From positions 90,367-154,366 of the forward strand of contig JADHVF010000001.1 in the NCBI GenBank assembly GCA_016784145.1: 64,000 nucleotides of DNA, given 5' to 3'. Origin of the DNA: Patescibacteria group bacterium. Its GTDB lineage: Bacteria; Patescibacteriota; Patescibacteriia; UBA2591; UBA6264. How positions within the stretch are numbered: position 1 is the stretch's first letter; each line of letters begins with the position of its first letter. A program made the translations under genes and the position numbers. Below are positions 5,756-55,387 of this stretch, in pieces. The notes under the pieces were generated by a model that was not told where the DNA came from, made no database searches, and worked only from the letters and a program-made list of their open reading frames with translations.

Positions 5756-5757
5756 TT

Positions 5758-8752: not shown

Positions 8753-8756
8753 AATT

Positions 8757-10026: not shown

Positions 10027-10121
10027 TTTAGATATTTTAAATTTTTTTAATAAAAAAGACTGGATTTTGATTATTTATGTGTTATAATTAATTTATATAA
10101 TTAGTATTAATTTTTAATCTT

Positions 10122-10508: not shown

Positions 10509-10520
10509 AATAATATAAAA

Positions 10521-10631
10521 AGGAGCGGACAATTTTGTCGCTGGGGATTAGAGGTTTTCTTTTCCTTCTTTAATCCAAGAATGCGCATGTTTTAGCCATA
10601 ATGCGTTCTTCTGTCCTCAGCGACCTTTTTA
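10521..10631 (+). promoter_or_regulatory. Candidate structured RNA / attenuator element ending in a T-run
   Basis: AAGGAG followed 8 nt later by a 12-codon TTG ORF. An 11-bp long-range stem GTCGCTGGGGA / TCCTCAGCGAC encloses ~70 nt. An alternative short hairpin AGCGGAC/GTCGCT uses the same 5' strand. Ends in CCTTTTT. Lies between the membrane-protein gene and the ABC transporter promoter. Confidence 0.25.
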
Positions 10632-10658
10632 TTATAAACATACTCCACAGAAATTTAT

Positions 10659-10686
10659 TTGACAAAATTTAATATTTTTTTATAAT
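10659..10686 (+). promoter_or_regulatory. Near-consensus sigma70 promoter TTGACA-N16-TATAAT abutting the start codon (leaderless mRNA predicted)
   Basis: TTGACA 10659-10664, TATAAT 10681-10686, ATG at 10693, only 6 nt after the -10 element. Confidence 0.5.
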
Positions 10687-10692
10687 ATTATT

Positions 10693-11622: not shown

Positions 11623-11629
11623 ATAAATT

Positions 11630-38692: not shown

Positions 38693-40618
38693 TTATTCAT
38701 CAAAAAACCATTCTAAAAGCTCTTTGGCAACCGGAACAGCTACTTTGCTCCCTTCTCCCCCGTTTTCTATCAAAACAACAAAAGCTATCTCTGGATTTTC
38801 ATATGGAGCAAACCCAATAAACCATGCGTGTGGCTCTTTATCTCCTCCAACCTGAGCTGTACCAGTTTTGCCAGCCACATTTATTTTAAGTGTAGATAAT
38901 CTTTTAGCACTCCCGGTTGTGACAGCTCTTCTTAGCCCTGTTTTTATTAATTCAATGCTTTCTTGAGATACAAAATTTTGTCTTAAAATTTTTGGAGATA
39001 TTTGTTGATTTGTTTGATTAGCTTGTGCTTGTATTTCTTTAACCAAAGACGGTTCAAACAATGTGCCATTATTTGCTATAGCAGAAATATAATTAACTAC
39101 TTGAATTGGAGTAACTAAAACATCTCCTTGTCCTATTGAAACATGATAAGTATCTCCAATATACCATTGTTCTTTTTTTACTGCTTGTTTCCATTCTGGA
39201 TTTGCTATTAAGCCAGCCCTTTCAGTTGGTAAATCAATATTTGTTAGTTGATTTAATCCAAATAAATTAGTATAAAAATGTATTTTATCAATACCCAACC
39301 CGTTAAATTTTTCAAAACCGCCTCCAATATAATAAAAAAATGTATTAACTGATTCTGATAATGCTTTTATAACATCTGTATATCCATGCCCTCCTTTTTT
39401 CCAGTCAGCAAAAAACCATTTATCAACATTTATTCCTCCGGTAGAATAAATTAATGTTCTCCCGCTAATTACTTCTTCTTCAAGAGCTCCAATTGCAATA
39501 ATTGGTTTTATAATTGATCCAGATGGATATTCTCCAGCTATTGCTCTAAAAACAAGTGGTTTATCTGGGTTATTAATAATGCTCTCATATTTTATTTTGT
39601 CAGAATCAATAAAAATATTATTATCATAACTAGGCCAGCTAAACATCGCTAAAATTTGACCATTAGATGGATTCATTGCTATTATTGTGCCAGCTCTACT
39701 TTTGTTTTTTTTAATATGTTTTATTAAAATTTCAGATATTTTCCTTTGCAATTCAGCATTTATTGAAAGAACTATATTTTGCCCTGAAATAGATTTTTCT
39801 TGAAAAATTATATTTTTTTCTTTACCCAAAGAATCAACTTCTATTTTTTTTCTGCCATATTTACCTTTTAAAACATCTTCGTAATACAATTCTATTCCCG
39901 TCTTCCCTATATTATCTGTAATTAAATAATCTGGATACTTGGTTAATTCAAGTTTGTTTAATTTACCAACATATCCCAAAATATGAGAAAAATTTGCTGG
40001 CATTAAATAATAACGTTGACTACTTGGCTCAAGTAAAATGCCTTGCAAATTATTGACCACTAGCATTAATTTCATTGCATTTAAATGACTTAAATTATTT
40101 TTGAGAATAACTTTATTATATGAATATGTATTTAAATTTTCAAAAATTTTAATTTGTTCTTGGGTGGATATTTCAAGTTCCTCCATCTTTTTATTCAAAG
40201 CATTGATAATGGTTGCCTTGATTAGCTCGTCTTTTGGCAGGTCTCCGGGCACTACAATTAATGAAAATTTTGGAATATTTTCTACTAATAAATTAAGATT
40301 TGAGTCATAAATAAGCCCTCTATCTGGTTTTATTTTAGTTATTCTAATTCTATTCCCTTCTGCAATATTTTCATATTTATTTCCTAAAACAATTTGTAGC
40401 CAAGTAATTCGCCCAATAATAATTAAAAAACAGAAGATAAATAAAAAATAGAGCCAATAAATTCTACTATTTTTAATTGGCTCAACCAAAGTTGATGCAT
40501 CCATGCTTTCTTGGTTGGTTGAGGTGTAGTCAAACTCTACTGGATTATATGAAGATTTTTCTATTTTATTATCTCTAATACTATTATCTTTTAATTTTAT
40601 TGAAAACAAATCTTTCAT
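38693..40618 (-). CDS. mrdA: Penicillin-binding protein 2 (peptidoglycan D,D-transpeptidase)
   Basis: N-terminal TM and dimerisation domain. Transpeptidase motifs SIIK (SxxK), SxN and KTGTA. Confidence 0.85.
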   Translation of the reverse strand: MKDLFSIKLKDNSIRDNKIEKSSYNPVEFDYTSTNQESMDASTLVEPIKNSRIYWLYFLFIFCFLIIIGRITWLQIVLGNKYENIAEGNRIRITKIKPDRGLIYDSNLNLLVENIPKFSLIVVPGDLPKDELIKATIINALNKKMEELEISTQEQIKIFENLNTYSYNKVILKNNLSHLNAMKLMLVVNNLQGILLEPSSQRYYLMPANFSHILGYVGKLNKLELTKYPDYLITDNIGKTGIELYYEDVLKGKYGRKKIEVDSLGKEKNIIFQEKSISGQNIVLSINAELQRKISEILIKHIKKNKSRAGTIIAMNPSNGQILAMFSWPSYDNNIFIDSDKIKYESIINNPDKPLVFRAIAGEYPSGSIIKPIIAIGALEEEVISGRTLIYSTGGINVDKWFFADWKKGGHGYTDVIKALSESVNTFFYYIGGGFEKFNGLGIDKIHFYTNLFGLNQLTNIDLPTERAGLIANPEWKQAVKKEQWYIGDTYHVSIGQGDVLVTPIQVVNYISAIANNGTLFEPSLVKEIQAQANQTNQQISPKILRQNFVSQESIELIKTGLRRAVTTGSAKRLSTLKINVAGKTGTAQVGGDKEPHAWFIGFAPYENPEIAFVVLIENGGEGSKVAVPVAKELLEWFFDE

Positions 40619-41148
40619 GATTTATGAAAATTAAATTTTGTCATTTTTAAAACAAAAATCATAAAAACAACTAAAAACCCTTGCAAAAATAACAATAAAA
40701 AAATATTAGATATATAAATTTCATTAATATTAATTTTTGTTTCTAATAAATTAAAAAAATAATAGATGTAATTAAGCCCTAAAAAAAATATTTGCCAAAC
40801 AAAACTCATTAAAAATCCAGTAATAAAAATATTTAAAGAACTTGATAAATTTAATTTTTGAACAATAAATTTATAACTAATACAGGCACTTAAAAATAAT
40901 GACAAAAACATTAATCCTTTTGGAAAAATAGAATATATGTCTAACAAAATTCCAGCCCAAGCAAAGAATATCAATAGATTATAAGGAATATTTTTATTAG
41001 ATGGCATTTTGATTGAATATATTATCGCCAAGACAATAATTAAAACAAAAACTAAAGAAATGTCTTTAAATATAAATGTTAAAGATAAATTTAATACAAA
41101 AAAAATTAAAATTAGTAAAAGAATTGAAAAAAATTTAAAAATTTCCAT
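40615..41148 (-). CDS. mreD: Rod shape-determining protein MreD-like polytopic membrane protein
   Basis: 177 aa with ~5 TM helices. Located between the mreC-like gene and PBP2, overlapping PBP2 by 4 nt. Confidence 0.5.
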   Translation of the reverse strand: MEIFKFFSILLLILIFFVLNLSLTFIFKDISLVFVLIIVLAIIYSIKMPSNKNIPYNLLIFFAWAGILLDIYSIFPKGLMFLSLFLSACISYKFIVQKLNLSSSLNIFITGFLMSFVWQIFFLGLNYIYYFFNLLETKININEIYISNIFLLLFLQGFLVVFMIFVLKMTKFNFHKS

Positions 41149-41152
41149 ATGT

Positions 41153-41932
41153 TTATTTTGGAAGTATAATAGAAGCTATCCTAAAATTCTTATTAAAAAA
41201 AGATTTTATAATTATATCCTTAAAAATAGTGCTCGTATTTTCATTTATTGCATCTATTTTTCCAATAATTATACCTCTTCTAATATTTTCTTGTAACCCA
41301 GAAGTAATAATAAAATCATCAATATTTACTTTTTTATTTGATGGAACATATTCTATTTTTATGGTTGATTCATACTGCCCCTTGATAATTCCTGACACAA
41401 TATTGTTTGTTTGTTCATTATCATTAACATTGCTTAAAATATCTGCTGAAATTAAAGACCTATAGTCAAATATTGGCATTAAAAATGAATAATAATCCGT
41501 TGTTTTGTATATTTTACCTATCAAAAACCCTCTGGCATCAACAACTGCTAGCCCGTTGATTACCCCATCATTTTTTCCTTTATCTAATAATGTCCAGTTG
41601 GAATCAACTCCTATTTTTCTACCGATAACGTTAGTTAAAATAAATTTATCTTTTGATTTCTCAAGAAAATTAAGATGTTTTCTTAAAATTTGATTTTCAT
41701 TTTGAAATATTTTAATTTGAGTTTTTTCATCACAAATATTATTATCAAGATTGTTTTGAACTAAAGAAAAAGAAAAAAATCTTTGTAAAGGGCTTAAAAG
41801 AAAATAAAAAACATTTTCTCCTTTAAAGAGAAAAATGAAAAAAAATAAAACAATAATAATTAAAAATATTATTTTTTTTATCATAAAAAAATTATTCTGA
41901 ACCAGGAGTTGAAGTCGTGTTACCTTCTTCAA
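41153..41932 (-). CDS. mreC: Rod shape-determining protein MreC
   Basis: TM helix, coiled-coil (ENQILRKHLNFLEKSKDK), then a beta domain ending ...DFIITSGLQENIRRGIIIGKI. The ATG at 41884 is the likelier start; 41932 is a TTG. Confidence 0.65.
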   Translation of the reverse strand: MKKVTRLQLLVQNNFFMIKKIIFLIIIVLFFFIFLFKGENVFYFLLSPLQRFFSFSLVQNNLDNNICDEKTQIKIFQNENQILRKHLNFLEKSKDKFILTNVIGRKIGVDSNWTLLDKGKNDGVINGLAVVDARGFLIGKIYKTTDYYSFLMPIFDYRSLISADILSNVNDNEQTNNIVSGIIKGQYESTIKIEYVPSNKKVNIDDFIITSGLQENIRRGIIIGKIDAINENTSTIFKDIIIKSFFNKNFRIASIILPK

Positions 41933-44207
41933 TGACTGGAGTTATTGATGATGTGTTTCCAATTATTGGACCATCTTCATATATTTCTCCAACCAAAATC
42001 TCTATTACATCTTCCCATTTAAACCCTAGCATTTCAAATATTTCTCCTGATTGAAAAGCTCTTTTTTTATTATCTTCAATAAAATAAATACCTGAACTGT
42101 TAGGATATTTAATCAAAGTCCCATTTAATCGTCCGCTTATGATATCGCCATCCTCATAAACTTCATTGATGGGAATTTCTATTACGTCTTCCCATTTAAA
42201 TCCTATCATCTCAAATATTTCTCCTGATTGAAAAGCTCTTTTTTTATTATTTTCAATAAGATAAACTCCCGGACTATCAGGATACTTAATCAATGTATTA
42301 TTAGGTCTTCCTTGTATTTGAACAATGAATTGGAAACTATTTATTAACATTTCAAAACAGGTTTTGAAATTTGATTTTTTTTCTATACCAATGTTATAAG
42401 AAATTGCATAGACCCTATCCTCTTTAGCAGTATATATTGTTAATTTTTCAGGATTCCATATAGCTGGTTGATTGTCTATAATTGTCTCAAATAATAATTC
42501 TTCTGCAATGTCTGGAGATTGTCTTAAATACCATTCTTTTGGAGATAATTTTTCTAAATTATTTTCCACTGTGATGCTAAAAAATTCTCCAGTATTAGTA
42601 ATCACTAATACTTCTTGATTAGCTGTTTCTGGCAATGCTCTGGCCAACCATGAACTTGGATAGAAAAAACTATAGGAATAAGTTGGGTTGGTATAAACAT
42701 TAATTAACCCAGAACTGGCAAGTTGTGCTTCTCCAGAATTTAATGGGTGCATTAATGTAAGAACCTCTTGTCCATCAGGGTTTCCGTCACCATCAGTGTC
42801 AGGATTATTTATTTGAGTTGTAAAAATATTTTCTTCTATATTAGTTAATCCATCATTATCTGAATCAATGCTTAGAGGGATATTTGGAGCAATTTGGAAT
42901 TTCTCAATTTTTGGAGTTGTTTTATCCTTGGCAACTAGAATAGCAAAAATTTTTGAAGGCAAAATATCAAAATTAATAGATAACGTATTCTTATTCGTGT
43001 CCAAAATAGATTCAAGAGGTGTCCATAGATTATCTTTAAAATATCCTAAAACTAAGTGCTCTTCCCAATCAGCATTAATAAATTCTTGATTATATGATAT
43101 TTTTAGTCTAACTGACTCAGAAAAAACAAGTGAAAAATCATTTGGCTCAATATTAAAATTATAGATGGTTTCAATAACCTTGTATGAAGATTCTTCTACC
43201 AAAAATTCTTGCTGTAATTTATTTGTCCATAATTGAGATGTAATATTCATTTCAAATGTAGTATTCTCATTAATTGCTCCGGCTGGCAAATAAAATTCAA
43301 TTTCTGCAATTTTTTTGTTTTCATTATTAACCGCCTCGGTTGTAATTATTTGTTCTGCTGATAAAACCTCTTCAATTATCGATTCTTCCTCTATTGGCTG
43401 TTCTTCTTCTTTAATTGTCTCTTCTGCTTGTTCTTCTTCTTTTACCTCTCCTTCTGTTGGCGCTGGCTCTGCTTGTTCTTCTTCTTTTACCTCTGTTTGT
43501 GGTTGAGGTTGTTCTTGAACTGATTGATAATAATTATTCATCCACATAAAAAAACCAAAGCCACCGCCACCAAGTAGTAAAATAATTAAAATTACAAAAA
43601 TTATTATATTTTTCTTTTTCTTTCTTTTTTTCTTTTTTGGTTTAAATTTTTTAAATTTACCGGGCATTGTATAAACCTTTCCCTTAGAAGATGCTCCTTC
43701 TTGGGCTGCTTTTTCAATAATTTCTTTTTTAGCTAACTCAGGCGTTTCAAATTCCTCTTGTTTTGTATCAATCTTCTGGAGCTGAGGAGCTGGAACTGAA
43801 CCAGCCGGCTTTGGGGCTGGTTGAGGCACAGAAGTTGGCTGAGGAGCAGGAACTGAACCAGCCGACTCAGGGGCTGGTTGAGGAGCAGGAGTTGGCTGAG
43901 GAACTGGAACCGAACCAGCCGACTCAGGGGCTGGCTGAGGAGCAGGAGTTGGCTGAGGAGCAGGAACTGAACCAGCCGACTCAGGGGCTGGTTGAGAAGC
44001 AGGAGTTGGCTGAGGAACTGGAACCGAACCAGCCGACTTTGGGACTGGTTGAGGAGCAGGAGTTGGCTGAGGAGCAGGAGTTGGCTGAGAAACAGGAGTT
44101 GGCTGAGGAACTGGAACCGAACCAGCCGGCTTTGGGGCTGGTTGAGGAGCAGGAGTTGGCTGAGATTGAGGAGACGAATTATTTGTTTTATTTTTATCTT
44201 CAAACAT
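41892..44207 (-). CDS. Giant membrane/surface protein: cytoplasmic Pro-rich tandem repeats, one TM, then an extracellular region with Ca-binding and ~48-aa repeats
   Basis: N-terminal ~190 aa consist of 6-7 copies of PQPTPAPQPAPESAGSVPV. A KKKKRKKKK stretch and a TM helix follow. After that come an E/Q-rich segment, DSDNDGLTN...DTDGDGNPDG, and two C-terminal VYLIENNKKRAFQSGEIFEM repeats. Confidence 0.6.
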   Translation of the reverse strand: MFEDKNKTNNSSPQSQPTPAPQPAPKPAGSVPVPQPTPVSQPTPAPQPTPAPQPVPKSAGSVPVPQPTPASQPAPESAGSVPAPQPTPAPQPAPESAGSVPVPQPTPAPQPAPESAGSVPAPQPTSVPQPAPKPAGSVPAPQLQKIDTKQEEFETPELAKKEIIEKAAQEGASSKGKVYTMPGKFKKFKPKKKKRKKKKNIIIFVILIILLLGGGGFGFFMWMNNYYQSVQEQPQPQTEVKEEEQAEPAPTEGEVKEEEQAEETIKEEEQPIEEESIIEEVLSAEQIITTEAVNNENKKIAEIEFYLPAGAINENTTFEMNITSQLWTNKLQQEFLVEESSYKVIETIYNFNIEPNDFSLVFSESVRLKISYNQEFINADWEEHLVLGYFKDNLWTPLESILDTNKNTLSINFDILPSKIFAILVAKDKTTPKIEKFQIAPNIPLSIDSDNDGLTNIEENIFTTQINNPDTDGDGNPDGQEVLTLMHPLNSGEAQLASSGLINVYTNPTYSYSFFYPSSWLARALPETANQEVLVITNTGEFFSITVENNLEKLSPKEWYLRQSPDIAEELLFETIIDNQPAIWNPEKLTIYTAKEDRVYAISYNIGIEKKSNFKTCFEMLINSFQFIVQIQGRPNNTLIKYPDSPGVYLIENNKKRAFQSGEIFEMIGFKWEDVIEIPINEVYEDGDIISGRLNGTLIKYPNSSGIYFIEDNKKRAFQSGEIFEMLGFKWEDVIEILVGEIYEDGPIIGNTSSITPVIEEGNTTSTPGSE
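43760..44200. repeat. In-frame 57-nt tandem repeat array (~7 units) inside the 771-aa gene
   Basis: Units such as ctgaggagcaggaactgaaccagccgactcaggggctggttgaggagcaggagttgg repeat with minor variation. Coding, not CRISPR. Confidence 0.6.
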
Positions 44208-44211
44208 AAAA

Positions 44212-44826
44212 TTATTTTAATTTTTTTATTTCTTCTTGTAAATTAAATAATAAAGCACCTACGTCTGGATTATTTGGGTCTTTTCTGTTTTTTATTTCAT
44301 CTCCGTCAGTATTTCCATCTCCATCAGTATCTTTATTTAAAGGATCTGTTAAATAAATTTTTACTTCTTCATAATCTGATAATCCATCATCATCTGAATC
44401 TATTTTATTTTTATTTGTGCCCAACGCTGATTCTTCTTCGTCTTTAAGTCCATCCCTGTCAGCATCATCGTTGATGTCTTTTTTAATAATTGATTCATCT
44501 TTTTCTTGAACATTTACTTCTGGAGCTGGATTGACTATCGGAATAATAATTTCTGGCTGGTTAGTTTGTTTTAAATTTTTCCAACCATACAATGCTCCCC
44601 CAACAACCATTATTACTATAATTATAAGTATGGTTGGTTTTAAAAATTTTTTCAATAATAATTTTTTTGGCAAAGGATTATCAACATTCACTTGTCTCAC
44701 TTTAATTGGAGATTTGTTCTTGTTAGCCATTAAATCAGCTTCTTGCTTAAATGTCTCTTGATTTGTTTGTTTTTTAGAAGACCTTTCAACTTCTTTAAAA
44801 ATATCTTCTATTTTTTCTTCTGACAT
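44212..44826 (-). CDS. Membrane-anchored protein with thrombospondin-type-3-like Ca-binding repeats
   Basis: TM helix. DADRDGLKDEEE, DSDDDGLSDYEE and DTDGDGNTDGDE match the DxDxDGxxDxxE motif. Confidence 0.55.
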   Translation of the reverse strand: MSEEKIEDIFKEVERSSKKQTNQETFKQEADLMANKNKSPIKVRQVNVDNPLPKKLLLKKFLKPTILIIIVIMVVGGALYGWKNLKQTNQPEIIIPIVNPAPEVNVQEKDESIIKKDINDDADRDGLKDEEESALGTNKNKIDSDDDGLSDYEEVKIYLTDPLNKDTDGDGNTDGDEIKNRKDPNNPDVGALLFNLQEEIKKLK

Positions 44827-44853
44827 AAATATAATTTTTTATTTTTTTATAAA

Positions 44854-47800
44854 TTAATTACACGAAGAACAACCTTCTTGATAGAAGAAACAATAATAAT
44901 TAACCATAACTTCATTGGAATATTCCGATGTATTATTAATATTATATGCTTTTATTCTATAATGATAAATATCGCCAGTATTTCCCATAACATTTTCGTC
45001 ATTATATAAATATTCATTAGCTGGAATACTGTCTGTTAGAATTAGCCATGATTCACTGTTGAATTTTCTTTCTAAAATAAAACCCGTTTGTCCATTATCA
45101 CCATAATCTGGCCATAACAAGCGAATCTCTTCATCATCTATTTGACAAAAATTTAATGCAGGAGCAGGCAACAATGTAGTCACTTCTGACTGATTAGAAT
45201 AGCCAGAACTACCACCACTATTATAGGCCTTGACCTTGTAATTATAAGTCATATTTATTCCAAGCCCAGTATCATTATTGTATGAATTTTCATTTACTCC
45301 GAGAGCTACGATTTCTACCCAGCTTGTCCATGTTCCATCAATTAAATCAGCTCTTTCAATTATAAACCCTGTTTCGTTTGTAGAATTATCACTCCATGAT
45401 AAATTTACTTGAGACGAAGATACTGCTAAAGCCGATAAACCGCTTGGAGCAAGTGGGGCCAATGGATGGGTTGTTTCAAAAGCAATGTTTGAATAAGTTG
45501 AATCCCCACCATTATTATAGGCCTTTATTTGATAATGATAAAGAGTATTTGGAGCTAAACTTCCATCAATATATGATGTTACATCATAAGCAACCGTGTT
45601 AATCTCTTGCCAAATAACTCCATCAGAGCTTCTTTCTATTTTAATTCCTGTTTCAGTATCAGCATTGTCTGTCCATGATAATTCTATTTGTGATGAAGAT
45701 ATTACGGTTGCTGATAAATCGCTTGGAGTTGATGGAATATCAATAACACAACTATCATCGCCTACTTGGTGATAGCCATTAATACAATTATCTACCAAAC
45801 AAGTTATTCCACTCCAATTGGGCCAAGCAGGAGGATGAATACTAAAATTGCAATCCCTATGCTGTGTTCCGTCTCCGCAATCAACTTGAGTTCCATATAA
45901 ATCACAATACAAGTCACAAACTTGTGTTTCTGAATTATTGGCAGGTACATCCGGGTTTGTAAAAGCATCTGTACAATGAGCTACTTCACACTGATTGTTA
46001 TAAATTCTATAATAGCCATCAGTTGGATTATAAAGACATTCATTTAAAACACATGACCAATTTTGCCAAAAAGGAGGATGGCTATCAATGCATTCTCTTG
46101 ATTCATCAGCATCTTGAGCATGTTCTTTTAGGGCTGTGCAATCTCTTGTGTCAAAATCCCCTATAGTTCCCCATGTATTTTCATCATCAGAACAATGATC
46201 TAATTCACAAATATTATATGATTGATAAATCCTATAGCCATAATCACATGCTGTAACATAACAAGTCCCCCATGCTCCCCAGTCAGGATTAGGGCAAGAA
46301 TCAAGACAAGTTCTTTCTTGTTCGCCATTTCCATTGGCCATGCCACAATCTCTTGTTTGTGATTGATCAATATCTGTATTTGGAGACACACAATGGTCTA
46401 GTCCACAATAAATACAATCGTTATTGGCTAGTAAACATGTCTGCCCAGGAGTACATCCCCTGTAATCATTATTGCAAGTAGTAGCATAACAACTTCCCCA
46501 TGCTCCCCAGTCAGGCGTTGGTTGAGTTGGGTAATAATCTTCGCAATACCTCTGTTGTTCGCCCTGTCCATTAGCGATTGAACATGTTTGAGCATTAGAA
46601 TCATTAATTTCTCCAGCTGGTGATTGACACTGGTCTAACTGACATGTGTTTTGCCAACCCCGATAATTCTCATTACAAGACCAACTACATTCTCCATCAA
46701 TACATTGAGATGTTCCATTGTCAGGCACATAACAAATATTTCCACAAACATCACAATTGTCAGCAGAGCCACCAATATGAGTTTCGCAACCATTTGAAGT
46801 ATCTTCTTGAAGGTCTCCATTACAATCAGCCCAATCTATCTCACAAGCCCACCCAAAACAAAGAGTAGTTTGATTACAAAAAGCATTTTCTTTAGAATTT
46901 TGATTTTGATCACAAACTTCTCCACATTCCATGATATTATTGCCACAAACAGGAGCTTCTGGCGGACTATATGAAAAATTGGAAATACCTATTTCGTCTA
47001 ATTGAGAAATTATTATATTATCTTCATTACCAGAAATATCTTCTCCTTGCCAAGTAACATATCCATCAGTTGGCTTATATTCAAAATTAGCAGCCCCGGT
47101 ATAATAATCCCCTAAGCAAGCCGAATCTTCTGGAGCATAATATTGATAAACATAAGAGCCATTAGGATGTTCAAAATAAAAAGTATTTGAATTATAACAA
47201 GTATTATTACATTGATAATCAGACGAATCAGTGTCTGATGGACAGCCAGCACAAAATCCATTAAATTCATTAATAGGGTCAATCGGTAGTGTTTGCCCCA
47301 ATAAAGACCCAAAGACATTTTGCCATGAAATCCATTTACTATTTGTTTGCCCCTGGATATAGGTGCCTGATGTTAATTCTGGATAATTTCCTGATGAATT
47401 TTTATAATTTTTTAAATTAGGAATAATTGCTTGCTTAAAGTCATAAATTCTATTTAAATCCCTTTTAATCTGATTCTTGTGATTTTCGTCTTCAATATTA
47501 ACATTAAATCTCCAGTTGCTTAACATTTGATTAAAAATATTTATGGTGTCTGAGCTAGCATTATCATTGCGAGAAATAAGATAAATTCTAGTGTTAATAA
47601 CTGGACTTGTTTCTTCATCCATAACATCAGCTACTCCAACATAAATTGTTCTGCCGTCATTAAGCCCGTTATAGCCATCAATAACTACATTGGTTGGGCT
47701 TCCAGGAGAATAAGCATATTCATTATACCAGTCCAAAACCTTAAAACGTTTAGGATTTTTATATACTCTCAAACCAATCACATCGTCATTCCCTGTTATT

Positions 47801-47970
47801 GGGAAAATGATTTCCTTGACCATGTTTTCGGTTGGCATTAAAAATACAGGAGTATCTATCTCAGGTAAAAGATCCTGTGCAGACGTGAATTTATAATTAA
47901 TAAAAATCAAAAATAATACAGCCACCATACTGATAAATAATAAAATTTTTATTATTGTTTTTTTAAACAT
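44854..47970 (-). CDS. Giant secreted protein (1038 aa): Cys-rich central region plus three C-terminal fibronectin type III-like repeats
   Basis: Signal-anchor, >60 Cys in the middle ~500 aa, then repeats of the form LSxxxxSSSQIxLSWxDN...TGxxIER...YxYxxKAYNxGG. Confidence 0.6.
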   Translation of the reverse strand: MFKKTIIKILLFISMVAVLFLIFINYKFTSAQDLLPEIDTPVFLMPTENMVKEIIFPITGNDDVIGLRVYKNPKRFKVLDWYNEYAYSPGSPTNVVIDGYNGLNDGRTIYVGVADVMDEETSPVINTRIYLISRNDNASSDTINIFNQMLSNWRFNVNIEDENHKNQIKRDLNRIYDFKQAIIPNLKNYKNSSGNYPELTSGTYIQGQTNSKWISWQNVFGSLLGQTLPIDPINEFNGFCAGCPSDTDSSDYQCNNTCYNSNTFYFEHPNGSYVYQYYAPEDSACLGDYYTGAANFEYKPTDGYVTWQGEDISGNEDNIIISQLDEIGISNFSYSPPEAPVCGNNIMECGEVCDQNQNSKENAFCNQTTLCFGWACEIDWADCNGDLQEDTSNGCETHIGGSADNCDVCGNICYVPDNGTSQCIDGECSWSCNENYRGWQNTCQLDQCQSPAGEINDSNAQTCSIANGQGEQQRYCEDYYPTQPTPDWGAWGSCYATTCNNDYRGCTPGQTCLLANNDCIYCGLDHCVSPNTDIDQSQTRDCGMANGNGEQERTCLDSCPNPDWGAWGTCYVTACDYGYRIYQSYNICELDHCSDDENTWGTIGDFDTRDCTALKEHAQDADESRECIDSHPPFWQNWSCVLNECLYNPTDGYYRIYNNQCEVAHCTDAFTNPDVPANNSETQVCDLYCDLYGTQVDCGDGTQHRDCNFSIHPPAWPNWSGITCLVDNCINGYHQVGDDSCVIDIPSTPSDLSATVISSSQIELSWTDNADTETGIKIERSSDGVIWQEINTVAYDVTSYIDGSLAPNTLYHYQIKAYNNGGDSTYSNIAFETTHPLAPLAPSGLSALAVSSSQVNLSWSDNSTNETGFIIERADLIDGTWTSWVEIVALGVNENSYNNDTGLGINMTYNYKVKAYNSGGSSGYSNQSEVTTLLPAPALNFCQIDDEEIRLLWPDYGDNGQTGFILERKFNSESWLILTDSIPANEYLYNDENVMGNTGDIYHYRIKAYNINNTSEYSNEVMVNYYCFFYQEGCSSCN

Positions 47971-47977
47971 AAATTAT

Positions 47978-50900
47978 TTAATCCCTACAATATAATAATT
48001 CAAAATTGGTTTCTTCATTTTCACCAACAGCATTACCATAATTGGTTCCTCCTGTCCAATCCTGATAAAACCAAGGATTTTCACATAAAAAAACCTTGGT
48101 TTGAATCTTTTTTAAATATTGATCCCCAACTGTCTGATTAAGAGCATCAATAATGATTTCAATGCCTCCTATTATTTCAGAGTTCCCATTATTATTTTGA
48201 ACCACCCCTGTTTCATTATCAGTAGTTGACGAATCATTAATATTGATTATCTCTTGGTCAGAAGATGACCATAACCATTGCCATTCATATAGGTTTGTCA
48301 CTTGTATAATTTGATTATTGTCATCATCTTTTACTGTTGCCATAAAATCAATATCATCTCCTGCATTAAAAAAGATAAAATCATTCTCTGAAATTTCTTG
48401 AGTATTTTCAATAATTTCAGGAATTACGTCTATATCTATTAAGTTTGCCGAACAAATATCTTCTTTGGTTGAAAATTCAAACAAATAATCATTTCCCATG
48501 ACAATATCATAAAAACTATATATTCCATTTTCTCCTCCACTGATTTCTATCTTATAATCATTATTGGCTATTAATAATCCTACATTTATATAAACTTCTG
48601 TTTTATTATTAGCATTATGAAATTTAGATATAACAATTGGCAATTCACACCACCAAACACCTTGCGCTTCTTCATAACAATTTAATTCTGTCTGAGATGC
48701 CTCATATTTGCCATAAAAATTTATTGTGGTTGATGAAATAGTGGCTAAGTTTGCCTTTTGATTAAATACAATAATAGGAAAAATATTTCTACAAACACCA
48801 GATTCATTATTACTTGGATTGATTGACTCTATATTAATTTGTGTAGCAACCTCTAAATGAATTTGTGCTTCCGTATCTTGCCCATCAAGAGTTGTGGTTG
48901 AAACAATATCAATTTCACCCAAAGAAACAGATTCTGCTTGAGCTTGAGATGGTTCTGTTTGTGGTGTTATTGTAGCAATGCCAATATCTGATGATGCCCA
49001 TGCCCATGTCATACCACTTGTTAAAATCTGACAATTTGGACCAATGGCAGAAGAAAAATAATCTCTTGTATTAGGGTGGATAATTTTTCCTGGCAATTCA
49101 TCTGCTGGAACATTTTCAATAAGCATAACCTGTTCAACCGGACAAAGTTCTTCTTGATTATTTGTTTTAAATTTCCAAACATAATCATCATTAGGAGTGT
49201 TATCTTCAAATCCATTTTCGTTACCATCTAATTGATTGCCTGTTTCTCCTACAACACCGCTAGGACCACTTTTAATAATTGCCTGATACCAATAATTAGC
49301 ATCTAAAAGATTATCTGGTTCAAATTTAACCCCAGTATAATTTGATAATTGCATTTCTATTATTGAGCCACTAATTACAACGCAATCCTCTTGATCAAAA
49401 TCTTCATTAGCAGAATTACATTTTTTAATAATAATATTATTATTATTTAACCCAGTAGTTACAATTTGATTAAATTCAACTAAAATGCCTGCGTTTTTAC
49501 AAGCATAATCTGAGTCAGGCCATGGGTTTGGAGTTCTGTATGAAGAAGAACAATCATTCCTTTGGGCTACCATTAATAACTCTTCTCCTTCTGGAATTTC
49601 AGTCATAAAATGTAAAGAATTGCTATTTATCCATTCTTCATCCCATATTTCTTCCCAATCACCAAAACAGGTCTCCCCAAACTGAAAACCATTACAAACT
49701 AAACGAAAATTTGTTTTAATTTTTTTCCTTACAAACACTCCTCCTGTAACTGCTTGAGCTGGTACAGCAATATCATCTATTAAAGTATCAGATACCCATG
49801 ATAAAACTCCAGCCAATTTATTATTTTTAAAAATTAGTTCTCTACCCGTAATTTCAGGTTCTAAGGTAAATCTCACTCCCTTTATTTCAATAGGAGAATA
49901 CCCTACTAGCCCATAATAAGGATCTATTGAACACAAAGCTGGGCCTAATGGGCTTTTATTAACTTCCCATGATTTTTCATTACTATTAATTCCAGCTGAT
50001 GTTTCAATGAAAACATCAACATCATAATTATTTGATTCTTCTGAAAGAGCAGGCAATTCGTTTGGCACCACAACAATAATTTGTTCATTAGTCCAGTTAG
50101 ATGGACAAAAATCTGGCAAAGAATCAGCTAAATAATTAATTCCATTATATTTAAAATAAACATTTCCAAAAGATGAACCAAAGTTTTCGCCTTTAATAGT
50201 TATCCAAGTTGTCAAGGGCCCATTATCAGGAGTAATTTTAATAATTTTAGGTGGTTTATAAAATGGAACCGGATTAGACGCCTTTAAGGGAAATCCTGTT
50301 TCAATTGGTGAGCGAACCCTAACAATAACATCTGCTTCTTGTTCTTGATTGTTTGGCACATTAAAACCAATTGATATATTTTCCCAATTATTCTCGTCAA
50401 TTCCATCAATAGTTGTGCCCGCAAAAGTAACATTACTATCCCCAATATCATTACCAAAACTAATTCCATTAATATCAATATTATCTCCAACATTACCATT
50501 ATTTGGGTTTAATTTACAAATTGCCGGATGAAATTCAGCAGTAACGAAGAAATCTTCTTTATTGCTTTCTCCCCAATAAGGATCAATTACAGCTACCTGA
50601 TAACTTTCATCCATTGTTAGCTCTGCTGGAACAACTGCTACAATTTTTGTATCTGACCAATTATTACAACCTATTTCAGCTGTATAAATGTTTTCTTGTG
50701 AATCCTTAAACCCAATATATTTTTGTCCTTTATTATTACTAAAATGTTCCCCCGTAATAGTAATATAAGTTGGGATGGTAATATCATTTGTTCCTCTATT
50801 TGGACTAATTTCCGTGATAACTGGCAATTGATGGTCTAAAGAAGTGAAAGGCAAAGGATTGCTTTGACCAATGTTATTAATTAAAACAACATCACCTGTG

Positions 50901-53017
50901 ACTGTTCCAAGAGGAACCAGTGCTGAAGATACTTTAATATCTGTCCATGAATCATAAGAAGCAATTTTATTAGAATAAAACCTTACTTGAGATAATTCAG
51001 ATTCCTCATCAAATCTTATTCCTCTTAAATCAACATTATTTATGTTTGGATAACCATAAGCAGGTGTTATTTTAAATAAGCATGGTCCTTGTGCCTGAAA
51101 CAAACTATCAACATAAAATTGAGAAGAATTACTTTCCAAGGACTGCCCACTATCTTCATAAACAATTGATGTTTTAACATCAAGTATATCCCCCTCCAAG
51201 TAGTCTGCCCCTTCATTGTCAGACGGAACCATTGTAGTAATGTATCGCCCGTCATAACCTTGAACAGGCATTGTGATAATAGTACTTGTGGCTGCCCCGG
51301 CAACAAAATTAACATCAAAAGGTTCGGCTGGCTGATAAGTTGTCCCGGCCAAACATGAACCATGAATTGTCAAACACTCCCCTTCTGATCCTTGATCCGG
51401 GGTTAACCGCGAAATAAATGGAGAACAAACACATGTTTCTAAAGTAGCTGAAGTAAAATCCCATGAATGTGTGAGTAAATCTCCTTGCTGATTCATCACT
51501 AAATCAGTCATTATAGATACATTATATGGTGTATTATTTTGCAAATTATTGTCTAATTCAAGTATAAAAACCTTGAATTTGTTCATATTTTGAACATCAT
51601 CAACCCTAAATGTTCCACCCGCAAATTGAACAGAGTATGGTTCGCCAACTTGAGATGGGTTTATGCTTATGTTTATATTGTCCCCTCCCCCTGTTAAAGT
51701 AATTTCAACCCGTTTGTTATACATAGATGTATTGAAAACAGCCATAATGTCAGCATCTGGACAGGTATTGTCTCCAGTAGGATGCCATGATTTTATGCCA
51801 GGAGATGAATCATTTGTTTGAAATTCCCACTCTTTTGCTTCAGTCATTTCATTGCCACAAAGGTCCATAATATGTTCAACGTGAATTCTATACCAAGTAA
51901 ATGATTCCAATAAATTACTATCAATTAATTCTAAATTAAAACCATTACCAGCCATCTCTACCTCCCAAACATCAGCCATAAATGTTTCTTCTATTGCTCC
52001 TCCTTCTTCACTCAATTTGTCTACCCAAATATTATTTGCTATTAAATTATTGTTTTCGTCCATTACTGTCGTCACATCAATCGGCTCTGAAAATCTTACT
52101 TGAATAACTGGGTTCATGGAGACATTTGTGTCTGGATAATCAAGGTCATTAATATCAGAAATTGGATAAGTTGAAGTAACTTCCGGATTAATGATGTCTG
52201 TTGTTTCTCCGGTTGTAAAATCCCAAATAAAATTACTGCCTGTTTCTTGACAATTACCCGAGGCAATACATTCTTGTAATGTCCGGCCCTGCGAATCTAA
52301 TATTTGTTTTGGTAAATAAGCAGAATAATTAGTATTAGCATCAAAAAGTGTAGCCACATGTTTAAAAATAATAGCATTATTACGTGTTTGCCATGTTCCA
52401 GTAAAAATTTCTCCAACATTATTAGTTATTTTTATGCTTTCATCAAGAACTAAATCATCTATTTTCCCGCTATTAACCCTAGAATTAAAAAGGGGCTGAA
52501 CAGCTGAACAAAGATATACATCTTGATGATAGCTTGCCTCATCCCCACCATGAGTTGTCTCAATTTTGGTTATTTTAAAAACATCACCATATGAACCAGA
52601 ACCACCTGGGTCTCCTCCTGATCCTGTCCACCCCTCCCCTGTAATTCCAGCAAATCTAGTCATTATAAAAGCCACTATTGCATACGAAGAAAGAATAATT
52701 ATCATTCCAATTATGCCTTCTTGCATAATTCTTCTAGCTTTTTTTATTTTTTCAGGGTCACCAGCTGAAGTTAACCAAATAACCCCTCCTGTTATTATTA
52801 TAATTACACCGATTAATCCGAGTAAACCAAGCACGATTTTTATAATATTGCCAACAACTTGAGGTAAATCAGCTTGTCCATACCCGGCTGTGTTGCCAAA
52901 ATCTGACAAGCCTTGGTTAAGATTCATTTCATTTTGAGCTAAAACATTAGCAAGAGGTGAAAAAAATAAAAAAGCAAAAAATAATAATAAAAATATAATT
53001 TTAAAAATATTCTTCAT
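47978..53017 (-). CDS. Giant protein (1679 aa) with N-terminal TrbC/VirB2-like T4SS-pilin module fused to a ~1500-aa extracellular region
   Basis: Signal peptide ...LANVLA/QNE, then the two-helix module VVGNIIKIVLGLLGLIGVIIIITGGVIWL-TSAGDPEKIKKARRIMQEG-IIGMIIILSSYAIVAFIM, characteristic of VirB2/TrbC-type pilins. Then a G-rich linker and a long beta-rich region. Confidence 0.55.
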   Translation of the reverse strand: MKNIFKIIFLLLFFAFLFFSPLANVLAQNEMNLNQGLSDFGNTAGYGQADLPQVVGNIIKIVLGLLGLIGVIIIITGGVIWLTSAGDPEKIKKARRIMQEGIIGMIIILSSYAIVAFIMTRFAGITGEGWTGSGGDPGGSGSYGDVFKITKIETTHGGDEASYHQDVYLCSAVQPLFNSRVNSGKIDDLVLDESIKITNNVGEIFTGTWQTRNNAIIFKHVATLFDANTNYSAYLPKQILDSQGRTLQECIASGNCQETGSNFIWDFTTGETTDIINPEVTSTYPISDINDLDYPDTNVSMNPVIQVRFSEPIDVTTVMDENNNLIANNIWVDKLSEEGGAIEETFMADVWEVEMAGNGFNLELIDSNLLESFTWYRIHVEHIMDLCGNEMTEAKEWEFQTNDSSPGIKSWHPTGDNTCPDADIMAVFNTSMYNKRVEITLTGGGDNINISINPSQVGEPYSVQFAGGTFRVDDVQNMNKFKVFILELDNNLQNNTPYNVSIMTDLVMNQQGDLLTHSWDFTSATLETCVCSPFISRLTPDQGSEGECLTIHGSCLAGTTYQPAEPFDVNFVAGAATSTIITMPVQGYDGRYITTMVPSDNEGADYLEGDILDVKTSIVYEDSGQSLESNSSQFYVDSLFQAQGPCLFKITPAYGYPNINNVDLRGIRFDEESELSQVRFYSNKIASYDSWTDIKVSSALVPLGTVTGDVVLINNIGQSNPLPFTSLDHQLPVITEISPNRGTNDITIPTYITITGEHFSNNKGQKYIGFKDSQENIYTAEIGCNNWSDTKIVAVVPAELTMDESYQVAVIDPYWGESNKEDFFVTAEFHPAICKLNPNNGNVGDNIDINGISFGNDIGDSNVTFAGTTIDGIDENNWENISIGFNVPNNQEQEADVIVRVRSPIETGFPLKASNPVPFYKPPKIIKITPDNGPLTTWITIKGENFGSSFGNVYFKYNGINYLADSLPDFCPSNWTNEQIIVVVPNELPALSEESNNYDVDVFIETSAGINSNEKSWEVNKSPLGPALCSIDPYYGLVGYSPIEIKGVRFTLEPEITGRELIFKNNKLAGVLSWVSDTLIDDIAVPAQAVTGGVFVRKKIKTNFRLVCNGFQFGETCFGDWEEIWDEEWINSNSLHFMTEIPEGEELLMVAQRNDCSSSYRTPNPWPDSDYACKNAGILVEFNQIVTTGLNNNNIIIKKCNSANEDFDQEDCVVISGSIIEMQLSNYTGVKFEPDNLLDANYWYQAIIKSGPSGVVGETGNQLDGNENGFEDNTPNDDYVWKFKTNNQEELCPVEQVMLIENVPADELPGKIIHPNTRDYFSSAIGPNCQILTSGMTWAWASSDIGIATITPQTEPSQAQAESVSLGEIDIVSTTTLDGQDTEAQIHLEVATQINIESINPSNNESGVCRNIFPIIVFNQKANLATISSTTINFYGKYEASQTELNCYEEAQGVWWCELPIVISKFHNANNKTEVYINVGLLIANNDYKIEISGGENGIYSFYDIVMGNDYLFEFSTKEDICSANLIDIDVIPEIIENTQEISENDFIFFNAGDDIDFMATVKDDDNNQIIQVTNLYEWQWLWSSSDQEIININDSSTTDNETGVVQNNNGNSEIIGGIEIIIDALNQTVGDQYLKKIQTKVFLCENPWFYQDWTGGTNYGNAVGENEETNFELLYCRD

Positions 53018-53024
53018 CTTAAAA

Positions 53025-53483
53025 TTAAATATTAGATAATTGCTTTTGAACTATTTGTTTAATTTTGTCGCCTGAAGCTCTGCCTTTTATTTCTTTTATC
53101 GCCATGCCCATTACCTTGCCAAAATCTTTCATTCCCTGAGCATTTATGTTTTTTATAATTTCTGAAACTATTTTAATAATAATTGCTTTATCAAGTTCAA
53201 CTGGTAAATATTTTGATAAAATTTTTAATTCATTGGCTTCTTTCTCAAGCAAATCCTTTCTGCCTCCTTTTTTATAAAACTCAATTGCTTCTGTCCGTTT
53301 CTTGGCTTGTTTTTGAATTATATTAACTGCAATCTCATCTGTCATTAATTGCTCAAGAGGACGTAATTCAACTTCTTTATTTAATAAAGCAGTTTTTATA
53401 TCTCTTAAAACAACTGCCAAATCACGGTCTTTTGATTTTATAGATTTTATTAAATCTACTTCAATTTGTTTTAATAATTCCAT
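53025..53483 (-). CDS. GatB/YqeY domain-containing protein
   Basis: 152 aa. Typical yqeY sequence, and adjacent to rpsU as in Bacillus. Confidence 0.75.
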   Translation of the reverse strand: MELLKQIEVDLIKSIKSKDRDLAVVLRDIKTALLNKEVELRPLEQLMTDEIAVNIIQKQAKKRTEAIEFYKKGGRKDLLEKEANELKILSKYLPVELDKAIIIKIVSEIIKNINAQGMKDFGKVMGMAIKEIKGRASGDKIKQIVQKQLSNI

Positions 53484-53487
53484 AAAA

Positions 53488-53706
53488 TTATTTTATTCTA
53501 CCTGTTTTTTTTAAATAAAATAATTGCTCTGACGTTTTCTTTTTCTTGAGTGCGTTTTCTTTCCTGGCCCTTTTATTTAAGGGTTTGGTTAGAAATTTTG
53601 TTTTTTTCTTTTGGTTAAGAATACCACTACGTTTTACTCTGTCAGAAAATTTTTTTAGAAAAAAATTCATTGGTTCATTTTGTTTTCTTTTGCTTTCAAT
53701 TGCCAT
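53488..53706 (-). CDS. rpsU: 30S ribosomal protein S21
   Basis: 72-aa basic protein (MAIESKRKQNEPMNFFLKKFSDRVKRSGIL...) matching the S21 pattern. Confidence 0.8.
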   Translation of the reverse strand: MAIESKRKQNEPMNFFLKKFSDRVKRSGILNQKKKTKFLTKPLNKRARKENALKKKKTSEQLFYLKKTGRIK

Positions 53707-53746
53707 AATAATTTCATTTTAACAAACATAAATTAAAAAGTAAATA

Positions 53747-54604
53747 TTATTTATGTTTTTGTATTTTATTTATTATTCTATTTAAATCATCATTATTATA
53801 TGCTTCAATAATAATTTTAACTTTTTTCACGGTTGGCTGTAATTTAACTTTTGTTTCAAGAAATAATGATAATTCTTCTTCTTTGGCTAATAAATTTCTA
53901 TCAGGAGTTATTTTTTTTCTAAATTTATTGCCAGCTGCTATTTGAGCTGTTTCCCTAACAGTCAATCCTGCTCCAAGTATTCTTTTTAACATTAATTTTC
54001 TACTTTGTTCATTTTTAATTGCTAGTAAGGCCTTAGCATGTCCCTCTGTTATCCTTTCGTCTCTAACTGCTTGTTGAATTATGTCTGGCAAAGTTAATAA
54101 TCGTAATGTATTAGCAATGTTTGCTCTTGACTTCCCTATCCTCTCTGATATTTGCTCTTGAGTTAGATTAAATTCATCAATTAATCTTTGATAAGCAACT
54201 GCATTTTCCATTGGATTTAAGTCTTTTCTTTGAATATTTTCTATTAAAGAAATTTCTAATTTTTCATTATTTTTAATTGAGCGAACCAATGACGGCACTT
54301 CATCCATTTCTAAAAATTTAGCAGACCGCCAACGTCTTTCTCCTGCAATTATTTCATATTTATCAGGCGATGAAGAAATTTTAGTAAGAATTATTGGCTG
54401 AATAATCCCATTTTTTTTAATTGAATTAATTAATTCTTCCATTTCAGAATGAGCAAAATTTTTTCTTGGTTGATTTGGGTTTGGATTAATTTGATTTATT
54501 GGTATTAACAAAACATTTTCTTTTGTTTTTCCCAAAACTTCTTGTGAGTGTTTTCTAATTGATTTTGAAGGGATTAAAGCCCCTATTCCTCTTCCTAAAG
54601 ACAT
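53747..54604 (-). CDS. parB: Chromosome partitioning protein ParB/Spo0J
   Basis: ParB box IELIENIQRKDLNPMENAVAYQRL plus HTH region. Confidence 0.9.
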   Translation of the reverse strand: MSLGRGIGALIPSKSIRKHSQEVLGKTKENVLLIPINQINPNPNQPRKNFAHSEMEELINSIKKNGIIQPIILTKISSSPDKYEIIAGERRWRSAKFLEMDEVPSLVRSIKNNEKLEISLIENIQRKDLNPMENAVAYQRLIDEFNLTQEQISERIGKSRANIANTLRLLTLPDIIQQAVRDERITEGHAKALLAIKNEQSRKLMLKRILGAGLTVRETAQIAAGNKFRKKITPDRNLLAKEEELSLFLETKVKLQPTVKKVKIIIEAYNNDDLNRIINKIQKHK

Positions 54605-54607
54605 AAT

Positions 54608-55387
54608 TTAAAAATTTTTATGTTCAAATAAAATTTCTTTGGCTAATCTTTTATAGGCATTAGCACCTTTTGATTTTGGAGCATGCTCTAAAATTGTTTT
54701 ACTATGACTAGGAGCTTCTGCTAAAGAAGTATTTCTTGGTATTACTGTTCTAAATATTTTATAAGGAAAATTCTTATAAAGTTCTTGCCAAACATCATAT
54801 GAAAGTTTATTTCTTTTATCATACATTGTTAAAACAGCTCCCATGATTGATAAATCTGGTTTCAATTCTTGTTTTATTAAGTTAATTGATTGAATGAGCT
54901 GTGTGAGCCCCTCTAAAGCATAGTATTCTGTTTGAACAGGGATAAGTATTTCATCTGCTGCCACCATTGCATTCAATGTAATTAATCCAAAAGAAGGAGG
55001 TGTGTCAATAAAAACAAAATCAAATTCATTTTCAGTATTATTAAAAAATGATTTTACAACTTGAGATAAAATTGATTCTCTATTATCTGCATTTACTAAC
55101 TCAATGTCAGCTCCCACTAAATTAGGAGTTGCCGGGGAAAGCCAAAAGTTAGGTAAAACCTCGTTCATTGATGCCCCTAAAGATATCTCTTTACTTAATA
55201 CTTCATAAATTCCCTTGTCATTATTTTCCTGTCCTAATCCAGAACTTGCGTTTGATTGAGGGTCTAAATCAATTAATAAAACTTTTTTGCCAAAATAAGC
55301 CAGAAAAGCTGGCAAATTTACAGCTATATTTGTTTTGCCAGTTCCTCCTTTTCTATTACAAATTGCTATTACAATTGGTTTTTGCAT
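54608..55387 (-). CDS. parA: Chromosome partitioning ATPase ParA/Soj
   Basis: Deviant Walker A KGGTGKTN and the usual ParA motifs. Confidence 0.9.
   Translation of the reverse strand: MQKPIVIAICNRKGGTGKTNIAVNLPAFLAYFGKKVLLIDLDPQSNASSGLGQENNDKGIYEVLSKEISLGASMNEVLPNFWLSPATPNLVGADIELVNADNRESILSQVVKSFFNNTENEFDFVFIDTPPSFGLITLNAMVAADEILIPVQTEYYALEGLTQLIQSINLIKQELKPDLSIMGAVLTMYDKRNKLSYDVWQELYKNFPYKIFRTVIPRNTSLAEAPSHSKTILEHAPKSKGANAYKRLAKEILFEHKNF

Follow-up and report, generated by a model that had tools for sequence, protein, structure and literature searches.

Patescibacteria encode short VirB2-like pilins that are members of PF18895, a pilin family of the type IV secretion system (T4SS). These proteins are ~105-150 aa long and consist of a signal peptide ending in an A-x-A/Q cleavage site, an exposed segment, and two helices joined by a W-M-T-S-G-G...K..AKK turn, and they end a few residues past helix 2. 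Many of their genes lie in arrays near virB4, and the published accounts cover short pilins and arrays of separate pilin genes (PMC10633639, PMC12102498, PMC12857230), including the essential pilin array of Candidatus (Ca.) Southlakia epibionticum (PMC10633639, PMC12102498). Usually, although not universally, a pilin gene neighbors virB4, further T4SS genes or an array of pilin genes (1135 of 1948 assemblies; PMC12102498), and PF18895 proteins with high expression have been recorded in methanogen-associated Patescibacteria (PMC10936435). Here, we analyzed a 64-kb stretch of DNA from a Patescibacteria group bacterium (contig JADHVF010000001.1; hereafter the window), in which the gene at 47978..53017 on the minus strand encodes a 1679-aa protein, hereafter the giant. 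The giant shares the signal peptide, exposed segment, two helices and turn of the short pilins, but continues for another ~1550 aa and is encoded in a cassette that is not a T4SS locus. A preliminary description of this DNA, which did not give the strand, had portrayed the protein as a TrbC/VirB2-type pilin fused through a Gly-rich linker to a huge extracellular region.

The giant gene is a single ATG-started open frame of 1679 codons plus a stop, running without interruption, as established from the open reading frame (ORF) list, its translation and an exact database match. Given that the G+C content of the window is 29%, at which stops make up ~8% of random codons, we estimated the probability of a 1679-codon open frame to be ~1e-60, which excludes a chance origin. 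The product is identical to GenBank MBL7053708.1, annotated as [quoted passage not shown], and the same 1679-aa product recurs on several contigs, which come from separate data sets (NCBI, Logan, ENA). All of the segments quoted in the preliminary description were located in the translation: the signal peptide end PLANVLA/QNE, helix 1 (VVGNIIKIVLGLLGLIGVIIIITGGVIWL), the loop (TSAGDPEKIKKARRIMQEG), helix 2 (IIGMIIILSSYAIVAFIM) and the Gly-rich linker (GITGEGWTGSGGDPGGSGS). A hydropathy scan of the whole protein detected only three hydrophobic stretches, at aa 1-28, ~51-86 and ~97-125. Neither an LPXTG motif nor a membrane segment beyond the first ~125 residues was found in the giant by sequence inspection and hydropathy scan.

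The N-terminal region of the giant can be divided into four parts. The signal peptide (aa 1-27; 52937..53017, minus) has a predicted cleavage site at ANVLA/QNE according to the -3/-1 rule, and its helix was modeled at aa 2-24 by AlphaFold2. Alignment A1 combines the giant's module with 17 relatives and with 20 short pilins, which are 115-144 aa long; in it, the A-x-A-Q motif is kept across the family, with A27 at least 90% conserved. The signal peptide is followed by a short acidic segment with no basic residues (aa 28-50; 52868..52936, minus), which aligns with the mature N-terminus of the short pilins and is probably flexible, as indicated by its low predicted local distance difference test (pLDDT) values. 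The pilin-like helical hairpin (aa 51-127; 52637..52867, minus) comprises helix 1 (aa 51-82), the turn TSAGD (aa 83-87) and helix 2 (aa 88-127), which opens with the K/R-rich sequence PEKIKKARR. A Gly-rich flexible linker with low pLDDT (~aa 122-146; 52580..52654, minus) completes the region; at this position, relatives carry Gly/Pro-rich or small Cys-rich segments. The AlphaFold2 model, built from a 38-sequence alignment, placed the hairpin helices at aa 51-82 and 88-127, with block-mean pLDDT values of 90-96 over aa 61-110. These limits leave only ~aa 83-87 for the true turn and make the K/R-rich stretch the start of helix 2.

Several lines of evidence connect this hairpin to pilins. PF18895 matched aa 51-118 (52664..52867, minus) over profile positions 5-71 of 71, scoring 29.3 bits with the whole protein and 33.2 bits with aa 1-138, both above the gathering cut-off of 26.6. 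The module is 55% identical to a 133-aa NCBI "TrbC/VirB2 family protein" that carries both PF18895 and PF04956, and 40-55% identical to many short pilins. Against the 20 short pilins in alignment A1, there is no gap between the start of helix 1 and the end of helix 2. The giant retains the family-conserved A-x-A-Q site, G78, W81, T83, G86, A94 and G104, while the near-invariant Met82 of the family is replaced by Leu. We also built a hidden Markov model (HMM) from short pilins only; the giant's module scored 133 bits with this model, compared with 98-187 bits for held-out short pilins and 104-136 bits for the modules of 39 long fusions. From this sequence evidence, we conclude that the module truly belongs to PF18895, the VirB2-like pilin family of Patescibacteria, and the preliminary description is in part supported.

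The relationship to the classical TrbC/VirB2/TraA pilins of Gram-negative T4SSs (PF04956) is less direct. The giant shares their helical-hairpin plan, but of the two pilin models that the preliminary description had suggested for searching the module, only PF18895 matched; PF04956 gave no match to the giant even at E≤1. PF04956 was matched by 25 of the 38 aligned sequences (best E 1.1e-7), many close relatives of the module among them, and some of the fusion relatives reached 24-26 bits, just short of its cut-off of 27.9. The NCBIfam model NF045849 (Mbov_0395 pilin-like conjugal transfer protein) scored 27.7 bits, below its cut-off of 40, and a search of PDB sequences with the module profile detected no relatives of solved structure. 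An hhalign comparison with a manually entered Agrobacterium VirB2 sequence gave the expected register but a probability of only 7%, too low for this result to be used as support. Foldseek with the hairpin returned nothing at E≤0.001, with the CedA1 pilus at rank 17, and fold searches do not separate the giant's hairpin from thousands of other helical hairpins. The tie to classical TrbC/VirB2 therefore appears to be indirect and to run through relatives. VirB2 is cut by signal peptidase before a Gln, and the giant has its predicted cleavage site before a Gln as well. VirB2 and TrbC also undergo head-to-tail cyclization, which a 1550-aa tail would make impossible in the giant unless the tail is cleaved.

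The distribution of charges suggests how the giant is oriented. Acidic stretches with no more than one basic residue flank the hairpin, namely the segment that precedes helix 1 and the linker that follows helix 2, while aa 88-96 carry five K/R. This pattern fits the positive-inside rule and a hairpin with both termini outside, so that the ~1550-aa region following the hairpin is predicted to be extracellular.

The preliminary description had noted a large β-rich region after the Gly-rich linker, and our domain searches and modeling support this: the ~1550 aa contain Big_5 and TIG/IPT domains, both above Pfam thresholds (71.3 and 59 bits, respectively), and end in an all-β model. The giant thus appears to be an exported protein of the bacterial Ig-like (Big_5/TIG) type. 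Of the three Big_5 Ig-like domains recognized (51452..52444, minus), the one at aa 276-401 matched strongly, that at ~aa 192-270 weakly and that at aa 409-522 at threshold. All three are part of a conserved base (aa 140-730), over which the giant is 41-52% identical to relatives P0002-P0014. The base overlaps a run of about six TIG/IPT-like Ig domains (~aa 528-1135; 49613..51436, minus), whose starts were detected by a motif scan for P-x-[IL]-x(1-3)-[ILV]-x-P-x-x-G at aa 533, 645, 732, 831, 923 and 1026; Pfam TIG matched three stretches, the best being aa 732-811. The C-terminal 540 aa (aa 1140-1679; 47981..49600, minus) were confidently modeled by AlphaFold2 as about four more Ig-like β-sandwich domains, all β with a mean pLDDT of 85.7. 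A weak Big_5 match lies at ~aa 1172-1285, and Pfam detected nothing informative in the last 280 aa. The giant closes with the conserved motif VFLCENPW..(~25 aa)..NFELLYCRD, as seen from invariant columns in alignment A2. Foldseek matches of the C-terminal model included the S-layer proteins SbsB, SbsC, EA1 and Sap (E 2e-11 to 1e-8) as well as NUP210, titin, invasin, FdeC and cell-adhesion molecules. With TM-scores of 0.12-0.26, this likeness to multi-Ig proteins is generic.

To place the giant among its homologs, we considered both the whole protein and the module. The whole-protein search retrieved 18 relatives of 1016-2865 aa that are 24-47% identical to the giant. PF18895 was precomputed at the N-terminus of 17 of them, and the module could be aligned in all 18; aa 1-730 and ~1150-1679 are conserved among these relatives, while the number of TIG domains in the mid-region varies. 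An exhaustive HMMER search with the module (aa 28-130) against 1.84 billion cluster representatives yielded 31,172 representatives at E≤1e-3, of which 4,724 also passed E≤1e-10. Among the 150 best representatives, 33 are short single pilins of 115-192 aa, 90 are tandem proteins of 187-1775 aa with 2-17 modules per polypeptide, and ~27 combine one N-terminal module with a long extension (337-4069 aa). The extensions contain Big_5 and TIG domains, but also β-propeller and Laminin_G_3 lectin domains; contig ends have probably cut short a few of the smaller "fusions". A typical member of the pilin family is 106-149 aa long, as seen in the best 120 matches of a profile search. The preliminary description had asked whether homologs are short pilins or similarly fused, and the answer is that both exist. 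Nor is the giant a one-off design: the module-plus-extension architecture is a recurrent minority form of the pilin family, neither an artefact nor a singleton. The tandem proteins, for which we use the term "poly-pilins" (P0020, P0033, P0027 and 87 others), have one N-terminal signal peptide followed by ~92-aa repeats of exposed segment, helix 1, turn and helix 2.

The giant gene is embedded in a minus-strand cassette with the order parA-parB-rpsU-yqeY-giant-(fn3)-TSP3 small-TSP3 large-mreC-mreD-PBP2 (38693..55387), in which most neighboring genes from rpsU to PBP2 are spaced by 4-27 nt or overlap. The two genes directly upstream of the giant, both identified by Pfam, are rpsU, which encodes ribosomal protein S21 (53488..53706, minus), and yqeY (53025..53483, minus); they lie 4 and 7 nt, respectively, from their downstream neighbors. 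We compared this arrangement with loci from JGI, ENA, Logan and NCBI and with 15 further metagenome loci found by alignment of the ectodomain base, down to ~30% identity. S21 and YqeY are encoded directly upstream of the giant in all loci with an upstream flank (~20 distinct loci), and the giant in these loci opens with the pilin module. Two TSP3 proteins are encoded downstream in nearly all loci with enough flank. The TSP3 pair is followed by mreC/mreD/PBP2 or, in one clade, by glycosyltransferase and Wzy genes. No T4SS Pfam families were detected in the annotated giant loci, and no further pilin-module ORFs were found in the flanks scanned at ~20 loci or elsewhere in the 64-kb window. Elsewhere in the window, the module matched weakly at 1..260, which encodes a thioredoxin-like membrane protein, and at 63358..63999, which encodes an FtsX-type permease; both were rejected as chance membrane-helix matches.

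Individual loci showed some variations. In a distant lineage (L015 1649..15032), two pilin-fusion giants stand in tandem in the slot after S21-YqeY, one of 1127 aa without a recognized ectodomain family and one of 4069 aa with Laminin_G_3, LTD, Big_5 and DUF4215 domains. On contig L009 of a metagenome-assembled genome (MAG), the giant is present as two overlapping ORFs of 980 and 1111 aa (6879..12958), while the near-identical contigs L004 and L022 encode an intact protein of 2213 aa; a frameshift that arose in the assembly of this MAG probably explains the split. The MAG contigs L009, L010 and L013 are titled "uncultured Gammaproteobacteria bacterium" yet carry the Patescibacteria-type cassette, and the taxonomy of these bins looks mislabeled.

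In the window, the giant is followed by three genes for candidate partners, all on the minus strand. Immediately downstream, after a gap of 7 nt (junction 47970..47980), is the gene for a 1038-aa protein with a signal peptide, an unassigned domain, Cys-rich repeats and fn3 domains recognized by Pfam (44854..47970); Pfam searches with aa 23-340 and 341-740 of this protein returned nothing informative. In BLAST comparisons, aa 23-407 of this protein matched the C-terminal tails of one-piece giants (P0007-P0012, P0014, P0015) at 31-47% identity. The giant ends with NFELLYCRD exactly where the one-piece relatives run on as YCRDGxPLLPxL, and the 1038-aa gene opens with a new signal peptide followed by DLLPEI. 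The N-terminal 280-380 aa of the 1038-aa protein thus correspond to the giant's tail in other lineages, which indicates gene fission, and the split is real since it is common to several independent loci. This relationship argues that the two products may still work together; because they are fused in other lineages, they are probably functionally linked in the "Rosetta-stone" sense. The next gene encodes a 204-aa single-pass membrane protein with TSP3_bac repeats of the calcium-binding type (44212..44826; Pfam). It is followed by the gene for a 771-aa protein (41892..44207) with a Pro-rich repetitive N-terminus, one membrane helix, and an outer part that contains a TSP3 repeat and has a duplicated C-terminal domain. 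The TSP3 match of this protein is weak and Pfam found nothing informative in its outer part. Relatives 30-56% identical to it are encoded in nearly all loci with enough flank. Its N-terminus (43620..44207, minus), predicted to lie on the cytoplasmic side, contains ~140 aa of near-perfect Pro-rich repeats (PQPTPAPQPAPESAGSVPVPQ...), which give rise to long spurious ORFs at 43733..44203 (minus) and 43763..44209 (plus).

Having characterized the module, the ectodomain and the cassette, we consider the chances about even that the giant is a membrane-retained surface fiber or contact structure, constitutively present, that acts together with its fn3 and TSP3 partners and uses a pilin-derived hairpin as its anchor. 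The protein would be exported via Sec and held in the membrane by a domain borrowed from Patescibacteria VirB2/TrbC-like pilins. After removal of the signal peptide, helix 1 would run inward across the membrane, leaving the turn and the basic beginning of helix 2 on the cytoplasmic side, and helix 2 would lead back to the outside. The linker and ~14 Ig-like domains (Big_5, TIG/IPT and related) would then be displayed as a flexible rod, whose reach, estimated from the number of domains, might be tens of nanometers. Encoded in an apparently vertically inherited and probably co-transcribed cassette, the giant may form a surface complex with the fn3 and TSP3 proteins and serve in contact and adhesion or as an envelope scaffold, rather than as a bulk pilus subunit. 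Three points favor this explanation: at the loci examined, the gene is not accompanied by T4SS or pilin genes; it is tightly linked to housekeeping and envelope genes; and a pilus ~8 nm wide has no room for a 1550-aa appendage on each of its subunits. The role as an adhesin in host attachment that the preliminary description had suggested remains putative.

Some observations weigh against a membrane-retained fiber. The hairpin is conserved far beyond the need of a generic anchor, with an invariant Gly and a W-M/L-T-S-x-G turn, for which a pure-anchor model offers no explanation. This pilin-specific conservation hints at a specific interaction, such as one with pilin-handling machinery or with other pilins. 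The window does contain one T4SS-related gene, 40 kb from the giant: it encodes an 840-aa VirD4/TraD-like coupling-protein ATPase with TraG-D_C, TrwB_AAD_bind and DUF87 matches and N-terminal membrane helices (6230..8752, plus). Genes of the VirD4/TraD type are reported to occur commonly in Patescibacteria and, as a rule, not to be linked with virB4 (PMC12102498). The gene is preceded by three small membrane-protein ORFs without an assigned family (4344..6255, plus), and other T4SS genes were not recognized nearby. Promoter and terminator counts in this AT-rich window were close to the shuffled expectation and hence provide no operon evidence either way, leaving co-transcription as a presumption. 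In addition, for VirB4, VirB6 and short pilins, the analysis covered 64 kb of the genome. The giant could instead be a modular minor pilin, whose hairpin is extracted by VirB4-type T4SS machinery and built into the tip, the base or, sparsely, the shaft of a VirB2-like pilus, with the Ig chain as its adhesin module. The conservation of the hairpin keeps this idea alive, although we rate it as rather unlikely. In its favor are the retained family residues, a module score inside the range of true short pilins, and the fusion of the same module to varied outward-looking domains (Big_5, TIG, β-propeller, Laminin_G_3), as would be expected of interchangeable adhesin modules. Solved conjugative pili have the inter-helix loop turned toward the lumen and the termini toward the outside, so that a C-terminal extension would point away from the filament. 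Structures of such pili are discussed in PMC9905601. The principle of modular pilins is established for type IV pili, in which, as in PilB of Streptococcus sanguinis, an N-terminal pilin module is followed by a functional adhesive module (PMC8179133); the giant shares this plan, but type IV pilins are an unrelated class with an unrelated assembly machine. They carry a class III signal peptide, which a prepilin peptidase removes, and one long hydrophobic helix at the N-terminus, whereas the giant has a classical signal peptide with an A-x-A site and a two-helix hairpin. A minor pilin would also fill a role left vacant in Patescibacteria T4SSs, in which PrgB-type adhesins were not found by Quinonero-Coronel et al. 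(PMC12102498). Like the giant, PrgB of pCF10, the adhesin of a Gram-positive T4SS, is a large surface protein, with a possible monoderm-T4SS association as the other shared feature, but it differs in its LPXTG wall anchor, its other domains and the position of its gene inside the T4SS operon. By contrast, the giant gene adjoins T4SS genes or pilin arrays in none of ~20 loci, and a T4SS pilus is not known from any member of the phylum, to which a review ascribes only the "potential to elaborate conjugative pili" (PMC12857230). Moreover, ~1550 aa per subunit do not fit every lattice position: by our estimate, the surface available per subunit of an ~8-nm pilus is smaller than the cross-section of an Ig domain, which would permit rare incorporation only. 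The tight linkage to rpsU, however, suggests constitutive and possibly high expression, a poor fit for a rare pilin.

We regard as less likely still that the giant, its fn3 partner and the two TSP3 membrane proteins form the regular, S-layer-like outer coat observed on ultra-small bacteria, in which the hairpin replaces the S-layer homology (SLH) or lipid anchors. The TSP3 partners, whose repeats are motifs that bind calcium, would suit such a coat, as calcium is required by many S-layers. SbsB, SbsC, EA1 and Sap are among the top structural matches of the C-terminal model, and the cassette was present in every locus recovered, beside a ribosomal gene and often beside mreC/mreD/PBP2 or glycosyltransferase/Wzy genes, as fits a core part of the envelope. 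S-layer proteins are also reported for Patescibacteria in a structure-prediction survey (bioRxiv 10.1101/2024.05.28.596244). The Foldseek matches are generic, however, with titin, NUP210 and cell-adhesion molecules scoring equally well, and the distal half of the giant is strongly variable in length and content among relatives, which is more adhesin-like than lattice-forming. No SLH or other S-layer Pfam family matched the giant. SbsB/SbsC/Sap/EA1, invasin/intimin and FdeC share its beads-on-a-string Ig-like ectodomain, itself a generic likeness, but are anchored by SLH domains or outer-membrane β-barrels rather than by a pilin-like inner-membrane hairpin. Very improbable, in our assessment, is a generic signal peptide followed by two unrelated membrane helices with no pilin ancestry. 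One might argue for it from the failure of fold searches to single out the hairpin, the missing PF04956 match of the giant itself and the 7% VirB2 comparison; but PF18895 scored above its cut-off, the hairpin aligns without gaps to short pilins that are 40-55% identical, 25 of 38 aligned relatives match PF04956, and the conserved positions are specific residues, beyond mere hydrophobicity. This family-level sequence evidence contradicts a generic anchor. An assembly or sequencing artefact, in which a frameshift or chimera joined a small pilin gene to an unrelated large gene, has a negligible probability. No point in support of it was found, and the related MAG contig L009 shows the opposite error, a giant that is split. 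The identical product on contigs from separate data sets, the persistence of the fusion in relatives 24-47% identical and at ~20 loci, including the 15 further metagenome loci, and the conserved Gly-rich linker at the junction all contradict it. Neither of the two circumstances that the preliminary description had named as speaking against a pilin fusion, a generic anchor or a frameshift chimera, was thus encountered, and a membrane-retained fiber on a pilin-derived hairpin is the explanation that we favor.

Short pilins and their gene arrays are already known, and databases hold the giant with automatic domain calls; in full-text searches of the literature on PF18895, VirB2-like pilins and Patescibacteria, we found no description of giant pilin fusions, poly-pilins or the S21-YqeY cassette. 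In its architectures, the "T4SS pilin" family is much broader than the literature conveys, since it comprises free pilins, tandem poly-pilins and giant fusions, and this breadth affects the reading of thousands of metagenomic "pilin" annotations. In Ca. Southlakia epibionticum, the single strain tested, the T4SS and VirB2-like pilins are essential for epibiotic life, while an adhesin has not been found and a pilus has not been seen. A more ambitious and, in our judgment, doubtful proposal is that Patescibacteria reuse the VirB2-type hairpin as a general module in free, poly- and giant "modular" pilins, and that the giant of the S21-YqeY cassette is loaded by the T4SS into or onto a pilus or, alternatively, makes up the outer coat of the cell together with the fn3 and TSP3 proteins. 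In both cases, the giant would supply the adhesin or contact structure still missing for the essential Patescibacteria T4SS and would be the first modular pilin of the VirB2 family. The order rpsU-yqeY-giant-TSP3-TSP3 offers an easily recognized genomic marker for the cassette in cultivable relatives. A conserved hairpin welded to a giant Ig-like ectodomain and encoded in a core-genome cassette is a concrete candidate for host contact or envelope building in these bacteria.

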